A DNA stretch of 44,332 bases from Escherichia phage EK99P-1. Positions within the stretch are counted from its first letter, which is position 1; each line of letters opens with the position of its first letter. The stretch lies in sequence record NC_024783.1. The stretch is one strand, 5' to 3'. Made by a program: the position numbers and the translations under genes. Positions 9,093-39,493 of this stretch are shown piece after piece. The notes below the pieces were generated by a model. The model was given only the letters and a program-made list of their open reading frames with translations, had not been told where the DNA came from and ran no database searches.

Positions 9093-9686
9093 GTGGCTGA
9101 AGTCTACTCATTCGCCGCCACTATTGCTACGTGGGTGGATAAGACGAAGGAGAACAACGATAAGGCGGTGCGGGCGTACGGTATGCAAATACTCGGACGC
9201 CTTATTGAAATCTCCCCGGTGGGCGATCCCCGCCGGTGGAAGATTAACAAGGCTTACGCGATGGCCCGCCAGCACGCGAACAAGGTGAACGCCGCACAGC
9301 GCCGCAAGAATGGCGGCAAACTGAAGCGCGGGCAGAAGAAGCACGCCAGTGTGCTCATCTCATTCAAAACTAAAAACGGCAACGTCACGTTCCGCCAGCG
9401 TGGCTGGGCCGCGAAGAATTACACCGGTGGGCGCTTCCGGGGAAACTGGCAGGTTACGTTCGACCGCCCGGCTGTCGGCGCTATTGACCGCGTGGACAAG
9501 GCCGGAACTGCAACATTAGCCGCGGGGCGTGAAGTGCTGGCGCATTACGATTCCGGTGAATACGGGTCGATCTGGTTTACTAACAATGTGCCGTATGCGC
9601 AGCGACTTGAGTATGGCTGGAGTAAACAAGCGCCCGCGGGGATTGTTCGCGTCGTAGCGGCAGAAATCAATTCGAAGGTGAAATAA
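9093..9686 (+). CDS. neck / tail completion protein (putative)
   Basis: 197 aa, GTG start with RBS AAGGGG, tightly packed with neighbours. Confidence 0.45.
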   Translation: MAEVYSFAATIATWVDKTKENNDKAVRAYGMQILGRLIEISPVGDPRRWKINKAYAMARQHANKVNAAQRRKNGGKLKRGQKKHASVLISFKTKNGNVTFRQRGWAAKNYTGGRFRGNWQVTFDRPAVGAIDRVDKAGTATLAAGREVLAHYDSGEYGSIWFTNNVPYAQRLEYGWSKQAPAGIVRVVAAEINSKVK

Positions 9687-10108
9687 TGAGCAATACTCTA
9701 ATCCGCAAGGCGCTTAACAGCGTTGTCGAAGAGCTATCGGTTAGCCTGAGCACTAGCGCGCGCCCGATAAAGGTTAACTGGGAGAACGTGAGCGGCGACC
9801 ACGCAAACGGCAGCGGTGTCTACCTGGAACCATATTTGCTTCCGGCCCCGACCCAGTTTGTGGGCTTCCAGCAGAAGGGCCGGATCTATGCAGGCGTGTA
9901 TCAGGTCGCCGTGGTATTTCCTGCGGGCACGGGCACACAGTACGCGAGCGAACTGGCGGACGCCATCGCGACGTCTGATAAGTGGCGGGCCGTAAGACTT
10001 ACCGGTGCTGCGTTCCAGCTTCAGGACGCGCCATACACCAGTTCGGTGATTGAGGATGTTGATCGTGCCCGCATCGTGGTTACAGTACCCTACACCTGTT
10101 GCGCCTGA
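9686..10108 (+). CDS. tail terminator-like protein (putative)
   Basis: 140 aa, last gene before the major tail protein, overlapping ATGA junction. Confidence 0.45.
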   Translation: MSNTLIRKALNSVVEELSVSLSTSARPIKVNWENVSGDHANGSGVYLEPYLLPAPTQFVGFQQKGRIYAGVYQVAVVFPAGTGTQYASELADAIATSDKWRAVRLTGAAFQLQDAPYTSSVIEDVDRARIVVTVPYTCCA

Positions 10109-10168: not shown

Positions 10169-10894
10169 ATGGGTTATCAACTTCCTAACGGGTCCAGCGT
10201 CCAGATTGGGTCCGTACTGGGTAGCGGCATCGCTGTTACGGCAGCTACCAACGCCGCCGCGTCTATCTCTGATCTTACGAAAGGTTGCGTTATCACCTGC
10301 GCGGCTTCTCATGGCCTGAAAGTCGGCGACGTGGTAATGTTCACTAAAACCCCGTGGGTACGTGCGCTGAACCGAGCGTTCATCGTGGGTAAAGTGGCTA
10401 CCAACGACGTTACGCTGGCGCGCTTCGACACCTCGGACGTGACCAAATATCCTACTGGCGCGTTTGGGGCAGGCACTCCGGGCGAAGTGGTGAAGGTGTC
10501 GAGCTTTATCGACTTCCCTTTCATTACTAACGTTGCCGTATCCGGTGGGGATCAGCAGACGACCACCTTCCAGCCGTTACAGGTGAACACCGCAATCAGT
10601 CTGAACACCACGAAAAACCCGTTTGTTCAGACTTACACCTTCACCCACGACGAAGAAGACCCGATCCGCCCAATCCTGGAAGACCTGGACGGCACACAGA
10701 AAACCACTGTGATTAAGTTCACTAACCCGGCAGCGGCAAGCGGCAAAGGTGAGATCCGTATTTACCCGGCTAAGGTATCTTTCCAGAAGATTCCATCGGC
10801 TGAAGTAAACAACGTGGAGACGGTGGAGTCCACCCTCACTATGCAGTCCGATATGGTTATTTACCGTAAGGACCTGGTTGAAGCGCTGTCGTAA
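10169..10894 (+). CDS. major tail protein
   Basis: 241 aa, RBS AGGAG, followed by a strong terminator and the G/GT chaperone pair. Confidence 0.75.
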   Translation: MGYQLPNGSSVQIGSVLGSGIAVTAATNAAASISDLTKGCVITCAASHGLKVGDVVMFTKTPWVRALNRAFIVGKVATNDVTLARFDTSDVTKYPTGAFGAGTPGEVVKVSSFIDFPFITNVAVSGGDQQTTTFQPLQVNTAISLNTTKNPFVQTYTFTHDEEDPIRPILEDLDGTQKTTVIKFTNPAAASGKGEIRIYPAKVSFQKIPSAEVNNVETVESTLTMQSDMVIYRKDLVEALS

Positions 10895-10924
10895 TTTGGT
10901 CGCTTAAATAGCGGGTGTTAATAT

Positions 10925-10948
10925 GGGGCCAGTACGGCCCCTTTTTTA
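10925..10948 (+). terminator. rho-independent terminator after major tail gene
   Basis: GGGGCC-agtac-GGCCCC followed by TTTTTTT. Confidence 0.7.
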
Positions 10949-10963
10949 TTGGAGAATTACATA

Positions 10964-11326
10964 ATGGCTAAAGCACCACTCTTTACACTTGACCCTAAAC
11001 CGACTTTTAAGCTACCGATTGAGATCCCGCGCCCCGGAGAAAACGAACCTGGCAAAATGACGTTTACCGTGCGCCACCGTCCGATCGACGAGTTTTCGCA
11101 GACCATGCAGGATACTGAGCGCAAGTTGTCAGAATATGACGACAATGACCCGGACGGCTTTAATGTTATGGTCGAGGCCATCATGCACGTCGCAGAAGGC
11201 TGGAATCTGCCGGACGAATTTAACGCGGAGAACGTCCGCCGCTTGGTGGTCAACTACCCGCGCGCGTTCGGCGTGTTCCATACGTCGTACTATCTCGAAC
11301 TGATGGGATTGCGTGAAAAAAACTAA
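10964..11326 (+). CDS. tail assembly chaperone G
   Basis: 120 aa from the ATG at 10964 (RBS GGAG). Acidic protein ending at a slippery A AAA AAC heptamer. Confidence 0.75.
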   Translation: MAKAPLFTLDPKPTFKLPIEIPRPGENEPGKMTFTVRHRPIDEFSQTMQDTERKLSEYDDNDPDGFNVMVEAIMHVAEGWNLPDEFNAENVRRLVVNYPRAFGVFHTSYYLELMGLREKN

Positions 11327-11640
11327 TTGAGGCGGCGCGACGCTTTTATGGCCCGCCGCCACCCTCCGAAGATTTAGCCGCGAGTTTATGGGGCGCGACA
11401 CCTGAAGACGTGTGTCCGCCCGTTGCGCTGTGGCCCGACAACGCGAAGGTAGTCGCAGTCTTCACAGATTGCTCCACGCAATGGCGTACCGGATTTGGCG
11501 GGGCATACGGCATCGACTACGGCGTACTGGAATGGTTATTTAAGATGCACGGCATCGAAAACGCGCAACGTGCGTTTAAAGATATCAAGCTAATGGAACG
11601 CGTTGCGCTGGATGAAATGGCGCGGCAGAACCCCGCATAA
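10964..11640 (+). CDS. tail assembly chaperone GT fusion (programmed -1 frameshift product)
   Basis: The -1 frame is open from 11317 to the stop at 11640. A slip at 11317-11323 joins G to the downstream frame. Confidence 0.6.
11317..11323 (+). other. slippery heptamer A_AAA_AAC for -1 ribosomal frameshift
   Basis: gaA AAA AAC TAA at the end of G. The -1 frame continues open for 105 codons. Confidence 0.6.
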
Positions 11641-11956
11641 CGAAGCGGGACAGGCGGGAAGTACCGTTTTGTCCCGCCTCTGTAAAACCGCATATCTAAT
11701 CACTTTCATTGCATAAACTCAAAGCGGGACAGGCGGGACGTCCCGTTTTGTCACGCCCTGTAAATGTGCATACCTATGCAGATTTCGTGCATAAACCAAA
11801 CGGGACAGAAAGCGGGACAAACAAGAGGCGGGACAAAGCGGGACAGCACCCCGTCCCAGCCAGTGCTGCCGCGGTTTTCAGCCGATCGGGACAGCGGGAC
11901 AGCACCCCAGTCTTTCAGACTAGACGGGGGTCAGTGGCCCCCCTCGTCTGAGACTG
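11641..11956 (+). repeat. GCGGGACA iteron region with terminal long hairpin (copy A, extended)
   Basis: About 10 GGGAC(A) units on one strand, several short GGGAC..GTCCC palindromes. The last 169 bp (11788-11956) are repeated at 39166-39334. Confidence 0.8.
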
Positions 11957-12024
11957 AATAAGGTTTGTTTTGAAATCGCTGATACAATATCCATCGGCAA
12001 CTGCATAAAAAAGGGGACTGCATA

Positions 12025-14667
12025 ATGGCAGATCAGGCAGCAGGCATCACGCTAAAGGCTGATGTTGCACAAATCAGAACGGCAAATACTGTGCTGGACT
12101 CCTTCGCACAGAAATCCGAGAACACAGAAAACAAGGTTAAGAAATTAAACGACACCCTCGGCAAATCCAAAAAGGTGACGAGTGACGCCGCGGGCGGAAT
12201 GGAGAAGCTGGCGACTGAATCGCAGCGCGCCGCCGATGGCATGACGAAACAGGAGCGACTTGCCAACAGGTTAGGCATGTCGACCAAAAACCTGGGCTTT
12301 GCCTCGCGTAACGCCGCATTCCAGTTACAGGATATCGCAGTTACGCTTGAGATGGGGATGCCTGTTCACCGCGTCATGCTTCAGCAGTTACCGCAGCTAA
12401 CTGGGGCGTTTGGCGGACTGGGAAACACGCTGCGTTATGTCGTCGGCACACTCGGCCCGTTAGGGATTGGCATCGCTGCATTAACGGCAACGCTCGGCGT
12501 AGGGGTGGCAATTACGACCCGCGCAGAGAACCAGGTGGCGGCGCTTAATAAGACGCTGGCGCTGTCCGGTAATATTTCAGGCCTGACAGCTAACCAGATC
12601 CTTGTGCTGTCCGAGAACGCCGAGCGCATGGGCGGGTCATTTCGCAAGACGCGTGACACAATCCAGGCGCTGGCGGCGGCGGGTGTGAAAGCGGGTGGTG
12701 ACTTTGGCGCATTGGCTAAGGTAGTGAATGACTTTGCGAAGGTGTCCAGCCAGCCGATCGAGGATGTGGTGGCGGCGGTGGCGAAGCTGTCAACCGACCC
12801 GGTAGGCGGCTTGCGCGCACTGGCGGATAAGTATCACGTCGTAAACGAAGCGCAGATCCAGCAGGTACAGTCGCTGGTTGATGCGGGTCGTGAGACAGAC
12901 GCAGTTGCGTTGGCTAACAAAACAGCCGCTGCGTCGTTCACCAGCATGACCAATGAGATCAAGGCGAACATGGGCACGCTTGAGCGGTCTATGAACGTCG
13001 TCACATCGGCAGCTAAATCGATGTGGGACGCTATCCTGGATGTGGGCCGCGCGCAGTCCTCCAATGAGTCCGAGATGAAAGCGCGCGAATCACTACAGCG
13101 CATGACCACGGCATACTATGCCGAGATGAAAGCGGTAAACGCTGCCGGTGGGGTAATGACCGAAGCGCAGAAAGCGCGTATTAACATGCTTTACAGCGAA
13201 CTGGTCGCCCAGGAAAAAGTAGTGGCGTCGCTCACCCTGCGTAACCGTGCGGAGCGAGACAACGCCCGCGCCGCGGACGAATCAGCAAAGGCGAACGAGG
13301 AGGCCAACCGCACCGCTCGCGACCGCGCCGCGTTCGAGAAGGAGTACGCAACTAACGCGAAGAAGCGCGCTGACGAGATCGCCCGCCTCAATTTGCTGAA
13401 TAAGCGCGGCGTTATCGACGAGAAAGAGCTTGCTGAGGCGGTGAAGCAGGTAAACGAGCGTTACAAAGACCCCGCCCCGAAGAAGGCCGCGGCTGTTCGC
13501 GTGGATGCCGGTATGAAAATGCTGGAAGTCGCACGGAGCGAACTGGCCCAGCTTCGAGAATCCGGCAAGCAGATCGAAGCCAACGCATCGACGCAGACCC
13601 GAACGCAACGCGCTCAAGCGGCCTTAAACAAGCTGATCGCGGATAATGAGCAGTTAATCGCCGCAAGCAAAGAAAGAGCGCTAACGGCAGCCGAAAAGCA
13701 GCAATTAGTCGAGTTCGGGCGCGTGAAGGAAGTCCGCGAGCAGATCGTCGAAGAAGCCAAATTGCTGGACGCGAAAGAGAAGCAGGTTAAGGCGCACGCG
13801 CAGATCGATGCCTTCGTTAAGAACCAGAACGCCGAACTAAAAGCCACCGCCGCGGGCTATGCCCTTTCCACTCGCGAAGCGGCAAACCTGCGCGAAGAAT
13901 TGCAGCTAATCGACCGCCTGAAGCGTGTAGGCGCTAACGATACCGATATCGACAAGGCGGTGTCTAAGCTGCGAGAAGTGCAGGAAGCACAGACCGGCGC
14001 TAACGCCTCGTTATGGGATGGATTCAGTCGCGGGCTTAAGGATAGCGTGGATGAGATGGGTAACGGATATACGCAGATGGCGTCTCTCACGAAATTCACA
14101 TTCAGCGCTATGCAGGACACGATGAACGAGTTTTTCGAGACTGGCAAGCTGAACGCAAAGGATATGGTTAAGTCCATCCTGAGCGAATTAATCAAGCTGG
14201 CTACCTCGCAGGCGTTCAAGTCCATCGTTAGCGCTTTCGGTGGTGACGGCGGCAAAAACGGATTGTTCGGCGCTATCTTCTCTGGCCTTACTAAGAATGC
14301 GGACGGCGGAGCGTACGCAGGAGGCAATCTCGCGGCCTATTCGGGGAAAGTGGTAAGCCAGCCTACCTTTTTCAGTTATGGCGTCCAGGCGTTCGCTAAG
14401 GGCGCTGGGTTGATGGGTGAGGCTGGACCCGAGGCCATCATGCCACTGAAGCGCGGGCCGGACGGGAAACTGGGCGTTGCCGCGTCTGGCGCAGGCGGTG
14501 GTATGGTCGTGACGACTAACGTTTACACGGGGACTGGTAAAACGGATACCAGTGTCAGCGGGCCGGACCCCCGTACTGCGCAAGCGTTCGGCAAGCAAAT
14601 AACCGAGGCGGTGAAGGCCGAGATCGTGAAAGCTACGAAACCGGGTGGAGTACTTTACAAACGATGA
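12025..14667 (+). CDS. tail tape measure protein
   Basis: 880 aa, Ala- and coiled-coil-rich with a Gly-rich C-terminal part, directly after the G/GT chaperone genes. Confidence 0.85.
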   Translation: MADQAAGITLKADVAQIRTANTVLDSFAQKSENTENKVKKLNDTLGKSKKVTSDAAGGMEKLATESQRAADGMTKQERLANRLGMSTKNLGFASRNAAFQLQDIAVTLEMGMPVHRVMLQQLPQLTGAFGGLGNTLRYVVGTLGPLGIGIAALTATLGVGVAITTRAENQVAALNKTLALSGNISGLTANQILVLSENAERMGGSFRKTRDTIQALAAAGVKAGGDFGALAKVVNDFAKVSSQPIEDVVAAVAKLSTDPVGGLRALADKYHVVNEAQIQQVQSLVDAGRETDAVALANKTAAASFTSMTNEIKANMGTLERSMNVVTSAAKSMWDAILDVGRAQSSNESEMKARESLQRMTTAYYAEMKAVNAAGGVMTEAQKARINMLYSELVAQEKVVASLTLRNRAERDNARAADESAKANEEANRTARDRAAFEKEYATNAKKRADEIARLNLLNKRGVIDEKELAEAVKQVNERYKDPAPKKAAAVRVDAGMKMLEVARSELAQLRESGKQIEANASTQTRTQRAQAALNKLIADNEQLIAASKERALTAAEKQQLVEFGRVKEVREQIVEEAKLLDAKEKQVKAHAQIDAFVKNQNAELKATAAGYALSTREAANLREELQLIDRLKRVGANDTDIDKAVSKLREVQEAQTGANASLWDGFSRGLKDSVDEMGNGYTQMASLTKFTFSAMQDTMNEFFETGKLNAKDMVKSILSELIKLATSQAFKSIVSAFGGDGGKNGLFGAIFSGLTKNADGGAYAGGNLAAYSGKVVSQPTFFSYGVQAFAKGAGLMGEAGPEAIMPLKRGPDGKLGVAASGAGGGMVVTTNVYTGTGKTDTSVSGPDPRTAQAFGKQITEAVKAEIVKATKPGGVLYKR

Positions 14668-36806: not shown

Positions 36807-39071
36807 ATGAGTTTAATTAAATTCGCCGTAACAAGACCCGCTAAAAAAGGCGAAAAAGCCAGGGCGGAAAACCTCCAGATGACCACCGATGAATTTTTCG
36901 AATTTATCAAAGATGCGAAAGAAATCTCATCGGTGCATATCAACAAGACGGAGGATAAAGCCGAGTATGCGCGCCGCAAGCGTAAGGCCGATGGCATCGT
37001 GGCATATACCAGTGACGGACTTCGCCGCAAGACCAGTGCGGTGGACCGCTCGATCCTGTTCTTTGATATTGACCGCACCGACACCCGCACCCTACGCCGC
37101 TGCCGTAAGGCGTTCATTGACGCGGGTCTGGAACACGTATTTCACACCACAACCGGCGACCGTCACCCACTGAAAGGCGGCACGCGTTGCGCCCGTTTCC
37201 TGGTGTTAACTGACAAGCCTGTACCGGCGGAAGACCTGGGCCGCGCCCAGTATGCCTTGTTAGCCCAACTGGGTCTGTCCGATGTGGACTTCGACGATTG
37301 CACGAAAGACACAAACCGCCTTATGTACCTGCCACACCAGCAATCTGTCATTAAATGCCACTACGGCAAGCGCGCCCGCGTCCGTCGTCTGCTCCGCCTG
37401 GCGGACAGGCTGGGAGTTGAGAAAGAGGAAGTGCGCCGCGAACTAACCCAGGGTGATGACGGCATGGCGGACGGTATTCTGGATTGGTGCTTCCAGGCAG
37501 GATTCGAACCGCTGTCGTCCGGTCGTGGTTATGAAGTTCCATGCCCGAACGAACATCTGCATAGTGGCGAAGGGTCCACCGCTATCATGGTTAAGGATGG
37601 CGAGATCCGTTTCAAGTGTATGCACACCGGCAACGAGTGTTGCTCGGAACTGAATAGACACCAGCACCTGGCGCTACGTCTCATCGGGATACCGGACCAC
37701 CTGAACGTCGAGCCGCACAACATGTCCCGTAAGCAAATCGCCGCCATCCTCCCAGGGCTGGACGACGAGGAAGTCGAATCCTTATATGAACATATTGTTG
37801 ATGCGGTTGGCGACGGCGAAGAATACGGCGTGTGCACCGATGCGGATCTGGATAACGAGCCGGTTGCGCTGTTCAGCAAGCACGACCCGATTATCGAGGG
37901 GTTGATTAACTTTAAATCAACTTGGTATATGGCTGGCGAGTCGAACATCGGTAAGTCTTTCTACGTGCTGGGGCAAATGGGTGCGGTTGCCGCGGGGATT
38001 CCGTTCGGTGGCGCGAAGGTAGTCCAGTCTCATTGCTTCTATTTCGATGCGGAAGGTGGCGAAGCCTCTAACCAGCGTAAGGAAGCATTGCAGATCAAAT
38101 ATGAGCACGATCTCGACAAGCTGCACATTATCGACCTGCAAACTCGCGGCTGGGATATCACCAGCAAATCCGGCTTGCGTGAAGTTATCAGCTTTATCAA
38201 CCGCACCGCTAACGGCGAACCGGTTGGCCTGGTGGCATTCGACTCCCTCAACCAGACTGTTGCGTTGCGGTCCGCCGATTCTAAACCGTTCGACGAGAAC
38301 AACGCCAGCGATATGGGCGAAGTGGTCAAAGCGCTGAAGGCCATTGCGGAAAATACAGGCGGCAGTGCGGGCGTCATCCACCACCCGGCGAAAGGTGCAA
38401 ACGGCAGCAGATCTCCCCGTGGGTCCGGCGCGCTGCATGGTGCTGTCGATTCCGCGTTCTTCCTGGAACAGCCGGACGACAATCAGCCTGGTCAATTGAA
38501 CCTGTATCACGAAAAGGCACGTAACGGCATCAAGCAAGCGCCGCGCGGCTTCGTCCTGCTCAAGTGCAAAGTTAAGGTAGATCTCCGCAAGTCCGAGGCG
38601 TTCGAATCGCACCAGTCCACCAGCACCGGGCCTGACTTCGGCGATGTGGTTGCCGGTTGGGACGTCAAGCCGATCGCATCCACGCCACGCGACGAGACTC
38701 TGTATCTCGTACCGGTCGCCCTGGCACCGTTCGCCATCGAACAGGCGAAGGCGGCGGGCAAAGCAGCAGTTAAGGACGAGAATGCCGCAGGACCGCGCAA
38801 CGAAAAAGAGAAAGTGCTTTATGCGGCGCTGGAAAAACTGATGGAAGATAACCCGGACCATACCGGATTCAGTAAATCGGCAATCGTCCGCCAGGCGGGA
38901 TTGGCAAAAGGTGGCACATCGACGAAGGCAATAGACGATATGGTGGAGCGCGGCGTGCTAGGTTTTTATACAGATCCGCATACCGGGGCCATCTATGGGT
39001 CGTCGAATATCGTCATAAAAACGAATATACCCATCACGCTTTCGGCGACCGATGACGACCTTAAAGATTAA
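36807..39071 (+). CDS. DNA primase / replicative ATPase (primase-helicase-like)
   Basis: 754 aa. N-terminal primase-like region and central P-loop GESNIGKS. Large early replication protein. Confidence 0.55.
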   Translation: MSLIKFAVTRPAKKGEKARAENLQMTTDEFFEFIKDAKEISSVHINKTEDKAEYARRKRKADGIVAYTSDGLRRKTSAVDRSILFFDIDRTDTRTLRRCRKAFIDAGLEHVFHTTTGDRHPLKGGTRCARFLVLTDKPVPAEDLGRAQYALLAQLGLSDVDFDDCTKDTNRLMYLPHQQSVIKCHYGKRARVRRLLRLADRLGVEKEEVRRELTQGDDGMADGILDWCFQAGFEPLSSGRGYEVPCPNEHLHSGEGSTAIMVKDGEIRFKCMHTGNECCSELNRHQHLALRLIGIPDHLNVEPHNMSRKQIAAILPGLDDEEVESLYEHIVDAVGDGEEYGVCTDADLDNEPVALFSKHDPIIEGLINFKSTWYMAGESNIGKSFYVLGQMGAVAAGIPFGGAKVVQSHCFYFDAEGGEASNQRKEALQIKYEHDLDKLHIIDLQTRGWDITSKSGLREVISFINRTANGEPVGLVAFDSLNQTVALRSADSKPFDENNASDMGEVVKALKAIAENTGGSAGVIHHPAKGANGSRSPRGSGALHGAVDSAFFLEQPDDNQPGQLNLYHEKARNGIKQAPRGFVLLKCKVKVDLRKSEAFESHQSTSTGPDFGDVVAGWDVKPIASTPRDETLYLVPVALAPFAIEQAKAAGKAAVKDENAAGPRNEKEKVLYAALEKLMEDNPDHTGFSKSAIVRQAGLAKGGTSTKAIDDMVERGVLGFYTDPHTGAIYGSSNIVIKTNIPITLSATDDDLKD

Positions 39072-39165
39072 ATTTTGCGCGCATTGGTTGCCATTTTGGG
39101 TGTTTTTATCTGGTCGTATTGGTTGCCGTGTAGTGTAGATATAATGAATAGTTATGCAATAAAAC

Positions 39166-39334
39166 TGCATAAACCAAACGGGACAGAAAGCGGGACAAAC
39201 AAGGGGCGGGACAAAGCGGGACAGCACCCCCGTCCCGCCCCGGATGGCGCGGCCTGGAGAGGAGCGGGACAGCGGGACAGCACCCCAGTCTTTCAGACTA
39301 GACGGGGGTCAGCGGCCCCCCTCGTCTGAGACTG
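39166..39334 (+). repeat. GCGGGACA iteron plus long hairpin element (copy B)
   Basis: 169 bp directly after the primase gene. Both flanks near-identical to 11788-11956, 34-bp central core divergent, one loop substitution in the hairpin. Confidence 0.8.
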
Positions 39335-39493
39335 CATAAAATCCGGGATTGCAAAATACACGGCAGCATGTTGCGGATTGCGGTCGTCGCTGAACTAGGC
39401 AACCAATGCGAGATGCGGAATGGTGGGTGGAAAATGCAGTTTGCAGTCACAGCAGATAGCGATCAACTTTTTCATGCGCGTGATTAATATTGG

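Follow-up and report, generated by a model that had tools for sequence, protein, structure and literature searches.

A predicted −1 ribosomal frameshift joining the tail assembly chaperone G to a DUF1799 extension in Escherichia phage EK99P-1

Introduction

How is the reading frame expressed that follows the tail assembly chaperone gene of Escherichia phage EK99P-1 and precedes its tape measure gene? The ORF list of this DNA contains only its downstream part, as a separate GTG-initiated ORF at 11410-11640. The initial annotation, which described that entry correctly, proposed that the frame is a T extension reached from the chaperone gene G by a programmed −1 ribosomal frameshift, and that the pair is a case of the conserved G/GT arrangement "in textbook form". 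The corresponding system of phage lambda has been worked out in detail (Levin, Hendrix & Casjens 1993; Xu, Hendrix & Duda 2004, 2013, 2014; summarised in PMC5009743).

We have analyzed the locus within a window of 44,332 nt (sequence record NC_024783.1), i.e. the whole stretch of DNA examined, to which all coordinates refer. What the sequences show directly is how the junction is built, which families the proteins belong to, the order of the genes, how far these features are conserved, and that the −1 frame carries a coding signal from the junction onward. On this basis the proposed expression mode is weighed here against transcriptional slippage, separate initiation, reinitiation and artefact.

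Genomic setting and protein families

The window represents Dhillonvirus, the HK578/SSL-2009a-like siphophages of E. coli, and shows about 93% identity to SSL-2009a. The 2-kb region around the site is matched by 157 phage records with 80-94% identity, nearly all of which are E. coli Dhillonvirus. The local gene order is tail terminator, tail tube, G, T and tape measure, and its components are as follows.

9686-10108: tail terminator protein (Phage_tail_terminator_5)
10169-10894: tail tube protein (Phage_tail_3, E 3.5e-32)
10964..11326, + strand: gene G, tail assembly (tape measure) chaperone, 120 aa, 14.0 kDa (Phage_TAC_4, phrog_569)
11323..11640, + strand: T extension, 105 codons (CTA ... GCA) followed by TAA at 11638-40 (translation, DUF1799, phrog_680, phrog_17368)
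between T and the tape measure gene: repeat-rich non-coding gap of 384 nt
12025-14667: tape measure protein, 880 aa (TMP_2, E 1.5e-42, and Tape_meas_lam_C)

The G/T pair has the tail tube gene on its 5' side and the tape measure gene on its 3' side, which is the synteny of a G/GT locus, and the C-terminus of the tape measure protein carries the lambda-type tape-measure domain (Tape_meas_lam_C). Gene G starts with the ATG at 10964, with GGAG at 10951-54 ahead of it, and the same 363-nt CDS is also annotated in relatives. Its product matches Pfam Phage_TAC_4 (PF08748) with E 1.4e-23 and 83.9 bits (gathering threshold, 21.1) and over the full length, residues 1-120 being aligned to profile positions 1-124 of 124. 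The T extension matches DUF1799 (PF08809) with E 3e-21 and 75.9 bits (threshold, 26), again over the whole profile (positions 1-80 of 80). In phrog_17368, a profile of 213 positions, the first half matches G and the second half matches T. AlphaFold2 models computed from alignments of distant homologues have pLDDT values of 92 for G and 95.7 for T. A Pfam search with G and T at E <= 0.1 gave nothing beyond Phage_TAC_4 and DUF1799, and searches of PDB sequences and NCBIfam returned zero matches.

The G-T junction and the slippery heptamer

The codons at the end of G are CGT, GAA (11315-17), AAA (11318-20), AAC (11321-23) and TAA (11324-26). The ending GAA AAA AAC TAA had been reported in the initial annotation, with coordinates that are correct to the base, and the heptamer at 11317-11323 and the −1 frame open to 11640 were likewise confirmed from the sequence. 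The junction consists of three abutting elements.

11314..11316, + strand: TGA closing the −1 (T) frame, immediately 5' of the heptamer (three-frame stop map)
11317..11323, + strand: slippery heptamer A_AAA_AAC, within the A7 run at 11316-11322 (sequence, stop map, conservation)
11324..11326, + strand: stop codon TAA of G, abutting the heptamer on its 3' side

The heptamer stands in the X_XXY_YYZ register of the G frame. From the junction the −1 frame reads AAA AAA CTA ATT GAG and so on until the TAA at 11638-40, and its translation is KK LIEAARRFYGPPPP...ARQNPA. The length of 105 codons that had been given for the T extension holds when counted from the CTA at 11323 (107 codons when counted from 11317). 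The predicted fusion, join(10964..11323,11323..11640), has 225 aa and a mass of 25.6 kDa.

According to the stop-codon map of all three frames, the G and T frames overlap by exactly 7 nt. Because the −1 frame is closed by the TGA at 11314-16 and G itself stops at 11324, the heptamer is the sole register in which G and T can be joined by a −1 shift. Heptamers of the form X_XXY_YYZ occur at 102 positions on the + strand of the window (0.23%), and it is unlikely that one should fall by chance on the only position that is permitted.

Conservation of the slip site among relatives

Homologous loci were found by protein homology to either G or T, and the junction in each was set by the stop codon of the G frame, not by the motif. 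Of the 159 IMG/VR loci obtained in this way, 158 have A_AAA_AAC with an adjacent stop codon, namely 78 of the 79 seeded with G and all 80 seeded with T. The G-seeded loci read GAAAAAAAC followed by TGA or TAA in 77 of 79 cases and ACAAAAAAC followed by TAG in one, while every one of the T-seeded loci (80/80) reads AAAAAAC followed by T[AG]A. The remaining exception, L084, is the sole locus with AAT for AAC, and the T ORF is absent from it. It was considered as a natural control and rejected, the prophage being interrupted there by an element with an integrase-like gene.

Clustering of the 186 loci by T identity gives 34 groups at a level of 90%, 16 groups at 70% and 7 groups at 50%, and conservation of the heptamer extends to about 42% protein identity. 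This conservation across homologous loci settles the question of a chance origin in the negative. The overlap permitted by the stop codons varies from 7 to 235 nt among the loci, and in the T-seeded set the heptamer is always at the extreme end of G. In these loci the Arg codon immediately upstream of the site is written CGC, CGA, CGT or CGG, and the wobble positions of GAA, AAA and AAC are invariant.

Beyond these loci, the same A_AAA_AAC plus stop junction was found in Rtp, a Tlsvirus, Pseudomonas phage Motto and Aeromonas phage pAEv1818. The equivalent place is taken by G_GGA_AAC TGA in Ralstonia phage Dina, by A_AAG_GGT TAA in Warwickvirus Jahat, by A_AAG in Serratia phage Scapp and by the tetramer A_AAA in Webervirus. 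In distant T-family ORFs that extend across the junction, KKL or GKL directly precedes a conserved LxEAA, which fits a −1 frame readout of the heptamers. Slipperiness that is kept while the motif itself changes is what would be expected under selection for ribosomal slippage.

The same comparison bears on transcriptional slippage, in which RNA polymerase would add one A within the A7 run, and the resulting A8 mRNA would be translated as ...REKK-LIEAARR. The run is present here and in most relatives, an extra A does yield the same T frame, and slippage of bacterial RNA polymerase on A/T runs is documented. However, efficient bacterial slippage has been described for runs of about 9 A/T (PMC5009743), as compared with 7 here. 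The run is reduced to only 6 A in Drexlerviridae members (GTA AAA AAC) and in one further locus, L065 (ACA AAA AAC), and a usable run is absent from Dina (G_GGA_AAC), Jahat (A_AAG_GGT) and Scapp (A_AAG). In addition, the conserved features, i.e. the register of the heptamer, its final C and the adjacent stop, are irrelevant to RNA polymerase. We consider transcriptional slippage very unlikely, and it is nevertheless the strongest of the four rival explanations to ribosomal frameshifting.

In-frame G-T fusions were sought in a set of 1.84 billion cluster representatives, which gave 1183 hits (50%-identity representatives). Of the best 150, one is such a fusion and the others are G-only or T-only. 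This lone fusion was too weak to serve as a Rosetta stone: it comes from an 811-nt contig with 2.6x coverage, and the junction segment is missing from it. A homologous-protein search with the fusion as query gave three matches, none covering both halves. The frame break is maintained throughout the family.

T as a probable extension of G

The ORF list starts the downstream frame at the following codon.

11410..11412, + strand: in-frame GTG taken by the ORF lister as the start of T (not conserved as a start)

If this start were used, T would be a separate protein of 76 aa (8.6 kDa) and there would be no fusion. The GTG is indeed present, and public records do give short pieces of the T ORF as CDSs of their own. 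Against this, there is no Shine-Dalgarno sequence within 20 nt upstream of the GTG, and ATC replaces it in L037, a Dhillonvirus locus whose G protein is 93% identical and in which the first in-frame start corresponds to residue 68, inside the domain. Depending on the relative, the first in-frame ATG, GTG or TTG of T lies at residue 3, 5, 8, 18, 20, 21, 30 or 68. In some relatives an in-frame ATG, TTG or GTG does occur 3-8 codons past the junction, and separate initiation at such codons may take place in a part of the family.

Family matches, cross-clade conservation, codon periodicity and predicted fold all reach 5' of the GTG to the junction. The DUF1799 match begins 7 codons and the phrog_680 match 19 codons 5' of it, and one peptide of the T domain upstream of the GTG-equivalent position reads FYGPPPPSEDLAASLWGATPEDV... 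In nine clade representatives, the T residues L1, P13, G24 and D29 are invariant, so that conservation begins at residue 1. Residues 1-30 of T form three helices that are packed into the domain in the AlphaFold2 model (pLDDT 94-95). Among 33 Dhillonvirus sequences, the variable sites at 11323-11409 fall on third positions of the −1 frame in 13 cases, on first positions in 5 and on a second position in 1, and this pattern points to purifying selection on T in its own frame. Since protein conservation, codon periodicity and predicted fold all start at the junction, T is no independent gene, and expression from the GTG at 11410 appears slightly less probable still than transcriptional slippage.

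Another way to obtain a free T would be termination at the TAA at 11324 and restart nearby, for example at the ATT at 11326, which would give a protein of about 104 aa whose synthesis depends on translation of G but which is not fused to it. The stop of G and the start of the T frame do overlap (AAC TAA TT), and the T frame contains the ATT at 11326-28 as a codon. A start-like codon is, however, not conserved at the junction, where other clades read CTG AGG CAG, CTA ATA GCG or CTA AAA CGA, and reinitiation accounts neither for the invariant heptamer nor for its replacement by other slippery motifs. Reinitiation ranks below initiation at the GTG in probability.

That the frame break is a homopolymer sequencing error within one continuous G-T ORF, or that T is a dead pseudogene, is hardly credible: homopolymer runs are error-prone in some chemistries and the 811-nt metagenome contig does carry an in-frame fusion, but more than 150 genomes and contigs that were sequenced independently agree in the A count and the frame offset, T is under purifying selection in its own frame, and the in-frame contig lacks the junction segment and is covered only 2.6x.

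RNA structure and other stimulators

A check for a downstream stimulatory structure, which the initial annotation had suggested, was run, and one candidate was obtained.

11331..11360, + strand: candidate 3' hairpin GGCGGCG...CGCCGCC, about −17 kcal/mol, with a 7-nt spacer from the heptamer (MFE folds)

When this hairpin was compared with 500 synonymous recodings of the same peptide, it was no better than the recodings and its stability was unexceptional (p = 0.15). Folding z-scores for the whole segment were also unremarkable (+0.24 and −1.16). The stem is invariant within the genus, so that it offers no covariation, and no consistent counterpart was found across clades except in Tlsvirus. 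This was also the only one of 11 clade representatives that stood out for a 3' hairpin (p = 0.002). On the recoding test and the cross-clade absence, the hairpin was rejected as evidence for a stimulator, and it stays a candidate. The description of the junction as a textbook case goes too far in two respects: the heptamer is weak in E. coli and the 3' hairpin has no statistical support.

An upstream Shine-Dalgarno-like stimulator was also considered and rejected: the conserved GGG that lies 8 nt 5' of the site is the Gly codon of a conserved peptide, ...LMG.RE.., and the third base of this codon varies freely.

The other element next to the heptamer is the stop codon, and an adjacent stop (TAA, TGA or TAG) is conserved in all heptamer-bearing relatives. 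The abutting stop may act as a pause element of the "shifty stop" type. A stronger version of this idea is that the stop codon is itself the stimulator and no RNA structure takes part, the −1 shift being coupled to termination with peptidyl-tRNA-Asn moving from AAC to AAA before a release factor has entered the A site; we put this forward tentatively and think it rather unlikely. It would explain why the weak heptamer has been kept in Dhillonvirus, Drexlerviridae and many prophages, and why stop adjacency is invariant while no 3' structure is conserved. If it were true, release factor and Leu-tRNA (CUA/CUG) would compete with each other, and the outcome would determine the G:GT ratio. It is opposed by Scapp and Webervirus, where one sense codon separates the stop from the slip site, and the adjacency could simply reflect the position of the slip site at the C-terminus of G.

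Proposed mechanism

We consider it very probable that a low-level programmed −1 ribosomal frameshift on A_AAA_AAC makes a 25.6-kDa GT protein beside the 14-kDa G protein in a lambda-like manner. We infer that the slip takes place, how efficient it is and what the G and T domains do, and the course of events would be as follows. Most ribosomes translating G would stop at the TAA at 11324 and release the 120-aa G protein. A small fraction would slip back by one base on the heptamer (11317-11323), with tRNA-Lys (on AAA) and tRNA-Asn (on AAC) re-pairing to AAA AAA. The slip may occur in tandem in the P and A sites, or in the P site alone by peptidyl-tRNA-Asn while the adjacent stop codon occupies the A site. 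After the slip, CTA (Leu) and the rest of the 105 codons of the −1 frame would be read, and a 225-aa GT protein containing ...LMGLREKN-LIEAARRFYG... would be produced.

By analogy with lambda, many copies of G and a few of GT would coat the tape measure protein (12025-14667), and the T (DUF1799) domain would recruit the tail tube protein (10169-10894). Both G and GT would be absent from the finished virion.

A_AAA_AAC is highly shifty on eukaryotic ribosomes and weak in E. coli, where it is inefficient because re-pairing of AAC to AAA is poorly tolerated (PMC5009743, PMC4066793). Weak motifs serve where little fusion product is needed (PMC4066793), and in lambda the long form GT is needed in small amounts, about 1:30 (PMC5009743). 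A weak heptamer would fit a chaperone whose long form is required sparingly.

In the proteome of the Dhillonvirus EE09 (PRIDE PXD046455), G was detected (CDS21), with a search database that held T only as fragments and did not contain GT. Our literature search found no frameshift experiments on Phage_TAC_4/DUF1799 pairs, this phage included, and no direct evidence for Dhillonvirus.

Comparison with known systems

The locus resembles that of lambda in that two ORFs follow the major tail (tube) gene and precede the tape measure gene, the downstream ORF of the pair uses the −1 frame and lacks its own start, and an X_XXY_YYZ heptamer is present near the end of G. Lambda makes much of its short G protein and little of the GT fusion, and both products are similar in size to those predicted here. 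The two loci differ in the slip site, which in lambda is the efficient G_GGA_AAG five codons before the stop of G and here is the inefficient A_AAA_AAC abutting the stop, and in the spacing of the downstream genes, lambda T overlapping or abutting H whereas T is separated here from the tape measure gene by 384 nt. Alignments of G and T showed no similarity to those of lambda G and T in hhalign (probability 0.8-1.2%), and the Pfam families are different. Judged by family and synteny, G and T are functional analogues of lambda G and T and not their sequence homologues.

True homologues, with the combination of Phage_TAC_4 and DUF1799 and 27-44% identity, are found in T1-like phages (Drexlerviridae: Rtp, Tlsvirus, Stevie and U136B) and in Scapp. 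Rtp and Tlsvirus share the junction A_AAA_AAC TAA with EK99P-1, whereas Scapp, Webervirus and Warwickvirus have slip motifs other than A_AAA_AAC. In the T1-like phages and Scapp, unlike in EK99P-1, the tape measure gene begins within tens of bases after T. The genome announcements of Stevie and U136B mention this conserved chaperone frameshift, and the homologous pair of Scapp has been deposited as a joined CDS named "Tape Measure Chaperone Frameshift Product".

The heptamer itself is known from the insA-insB' junction of IS1, where A_AAA_AAC is a proven low-level −1 site in E. coli without an established stimulator (PMC4066793). The motif and the host are the same as here, and IS1 is an unrelated transposase system. 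In gp12/gp13 of Acinetobacter phage Loki, AAAAAAC directly adjoins the stop of the tail chaperone gene, and a fusion by −1 shift has been predicted (PMC5313236); the likeness to G and T is one of arrangement, and the Loki fusion is a prediction only.

Significance for annotation

The kind of feature described here is already known and already annotated in homologues. The view of the initial annotation that the locus has the conserved G/GT arrangement agrees with the synteny, the protein families, the −1 frame, the heptamer, its conservation and the joined CDS of Scapp, and the G/GT-type interpretation is supported by every test open to sequence analysis. The main value of the result is in annotation. 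The GT fusion is missing from all five Dhillonvirus records that were sampled (SSL-2009a RefSeq, Opt212, JLBYU60, Pandora71 and Gluttony), and T is present in them only as a fragment of 31-42 aa called "hypothetical" or "DUF1799". In the RefSeq records among these, G wrongly bears the name "tail length tape measure protein".

The correct feature, join(10964..11323,11323..11640), would return an essential tail-assembly protein to about 150 E. coli phages that are therapeutic candidates. DUF1799 would at the same time acquire a function, that of the T domain in the Phage_TAC_4 chaperone family. For the incremental question of how the share of fusion protein is set to a low value by a weak heptamer with an abutting stop codon, the family provides a clean natural series.

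Other features of the region

An Rfam search of 10800-12100 at E <= 1 gave a single chance match, which is SraG-like and on the opposite strand. One further element was found upstream of G.

10925..10949, + strand: terminator-like hairpin GGGGCC-AGTAC-GGCCCC followed by TTTTTTATT (terminator scan, sequence)

This hairpin, which resembles an intrinsic terminator, is located between the stop of the tail tube gene (10894) and G, and is probably an attenuator upstream of the chaperone and tape measure genes.

Repeats between T and the tape measure gene

The tape measure gene (12025-14667) begins only after a gap of 384 nt beyond the stop codon of T, the -1-frame DUF1799 extension of the tail assembly chaperone gene G, whereas lambda and those T1-like relatives that were examined have this gene within tens of bases of T. 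The gap owes its length to a 78-79-nt unit present in two tandem copies, which are followed by the first copy of a second, longer element. These features and a hairpin preceding G are as follows.

Non-coding features of the window
10925-10949: intrinsic terminator-like hairpin GGGGCC AGTAC GGCCCC, followed by TTTTTTATT, 3' of the tail tube gene and 5' of G
11641-11719 and 11720-11797: 78-79-nt unit, duplicated in tandem, directly 3' of the T stop and just upstream of the ~175-bp element
11786-11963: ~175-bp element, copy 1, between the T stop and the start of the tape measure gene
39164-39343: ~175-bp element, copy 2, 3' of a 754-aa ORF (36807-39071)

The tandem units contain two repeat blocks with identities of 92% and 72%, and each unit is opened by an inverted repeat, GCGGGACA...TGTCCCGC. 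The two copies of the ~175-bp element share long identical blocks, are rich in CGGGACA(G) repeats, and end in each case with a hairpin, GACGGGGG...CCCCCCTCGTC. In the whole window GCGGGACA was observed 16 times against 2.2 expected, and 12 of these sites fall in two clusters, at ~11.6-11.9 kb and ~39.2 kb, which take in both copies of the element; all five sites of TGCATAAA in the window are inside or adjoining the same two regions. The ~175-bp element is kept in 155 Dhillonvirus records, mostly without annotation and usually at two sites per record. No match for it was found in Rfam, and it may represent an array of binding sites for a regulator, serve as a promoter region or encode a small RNA.

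The terminator-like hairpin at 10925-10949 probably attenuates transcription entering the chaperone and tape measure genes; at the equivalent site, terminators are annotated in Serratia phage Scapp and Pseudomonas phage Motto.

Relatives departing from the usual G/T arrangement

Three related loci depart from the usual arrangement. In a prophage relative (L084:1320-2060) the junction reads GAAAAAAAT TAG and T is absent; in its place, an ORF whose N-terminus resembles a P4-type integrase begins ~100 nt downstream, and a mobile element seems to have been inserted at or adjoining the slippery A-run. A 206-aa protein (P0011, L192:173-793), encoded on a single 811-nt metagenome contig of 2.6x coverage, is an in-frame G-T fusion from which the ...ELMG.REKN junction segment has been deleted. 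The alternatives are that this fusion is natural but rare, or that the assembly created it. The third locus (L077:1327-1445) retains GAAAAAAAC TGA, yet its -1 ORF ends after 39 codons, which may mean that T is a pseudogene here or was sequenced with an error.

Annotation in public records

In the sampled Dhillonvirus records L001 (NC_012223.2), L002, L003, L022 and L105, the join for the frameshift fusion GT is missing and T is cut into CDSs of 31-42 aa named "hypothetical protein" or "DUF1799". In RefSeq, the SSL-2009a and Gluttony records give G the name "tail length tape measure protein", which derives from PHROG annotation. Since the RefSeq copy of lambda used here (NC_001416.1, 812-1650) also presents G and T as two separate CDSs with no join flag, a missing join in a record is weak evidence on what is known.

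The two records closest to the 2-kb stretch around G/T carry the names "Campylobacter phage A144" and "Acinetobacter phage NJ01", yet share ~94% identity with the present Dhillonvirus of E. coli. These host names look doubtful, and contaminating coliphages are a possible explanation.
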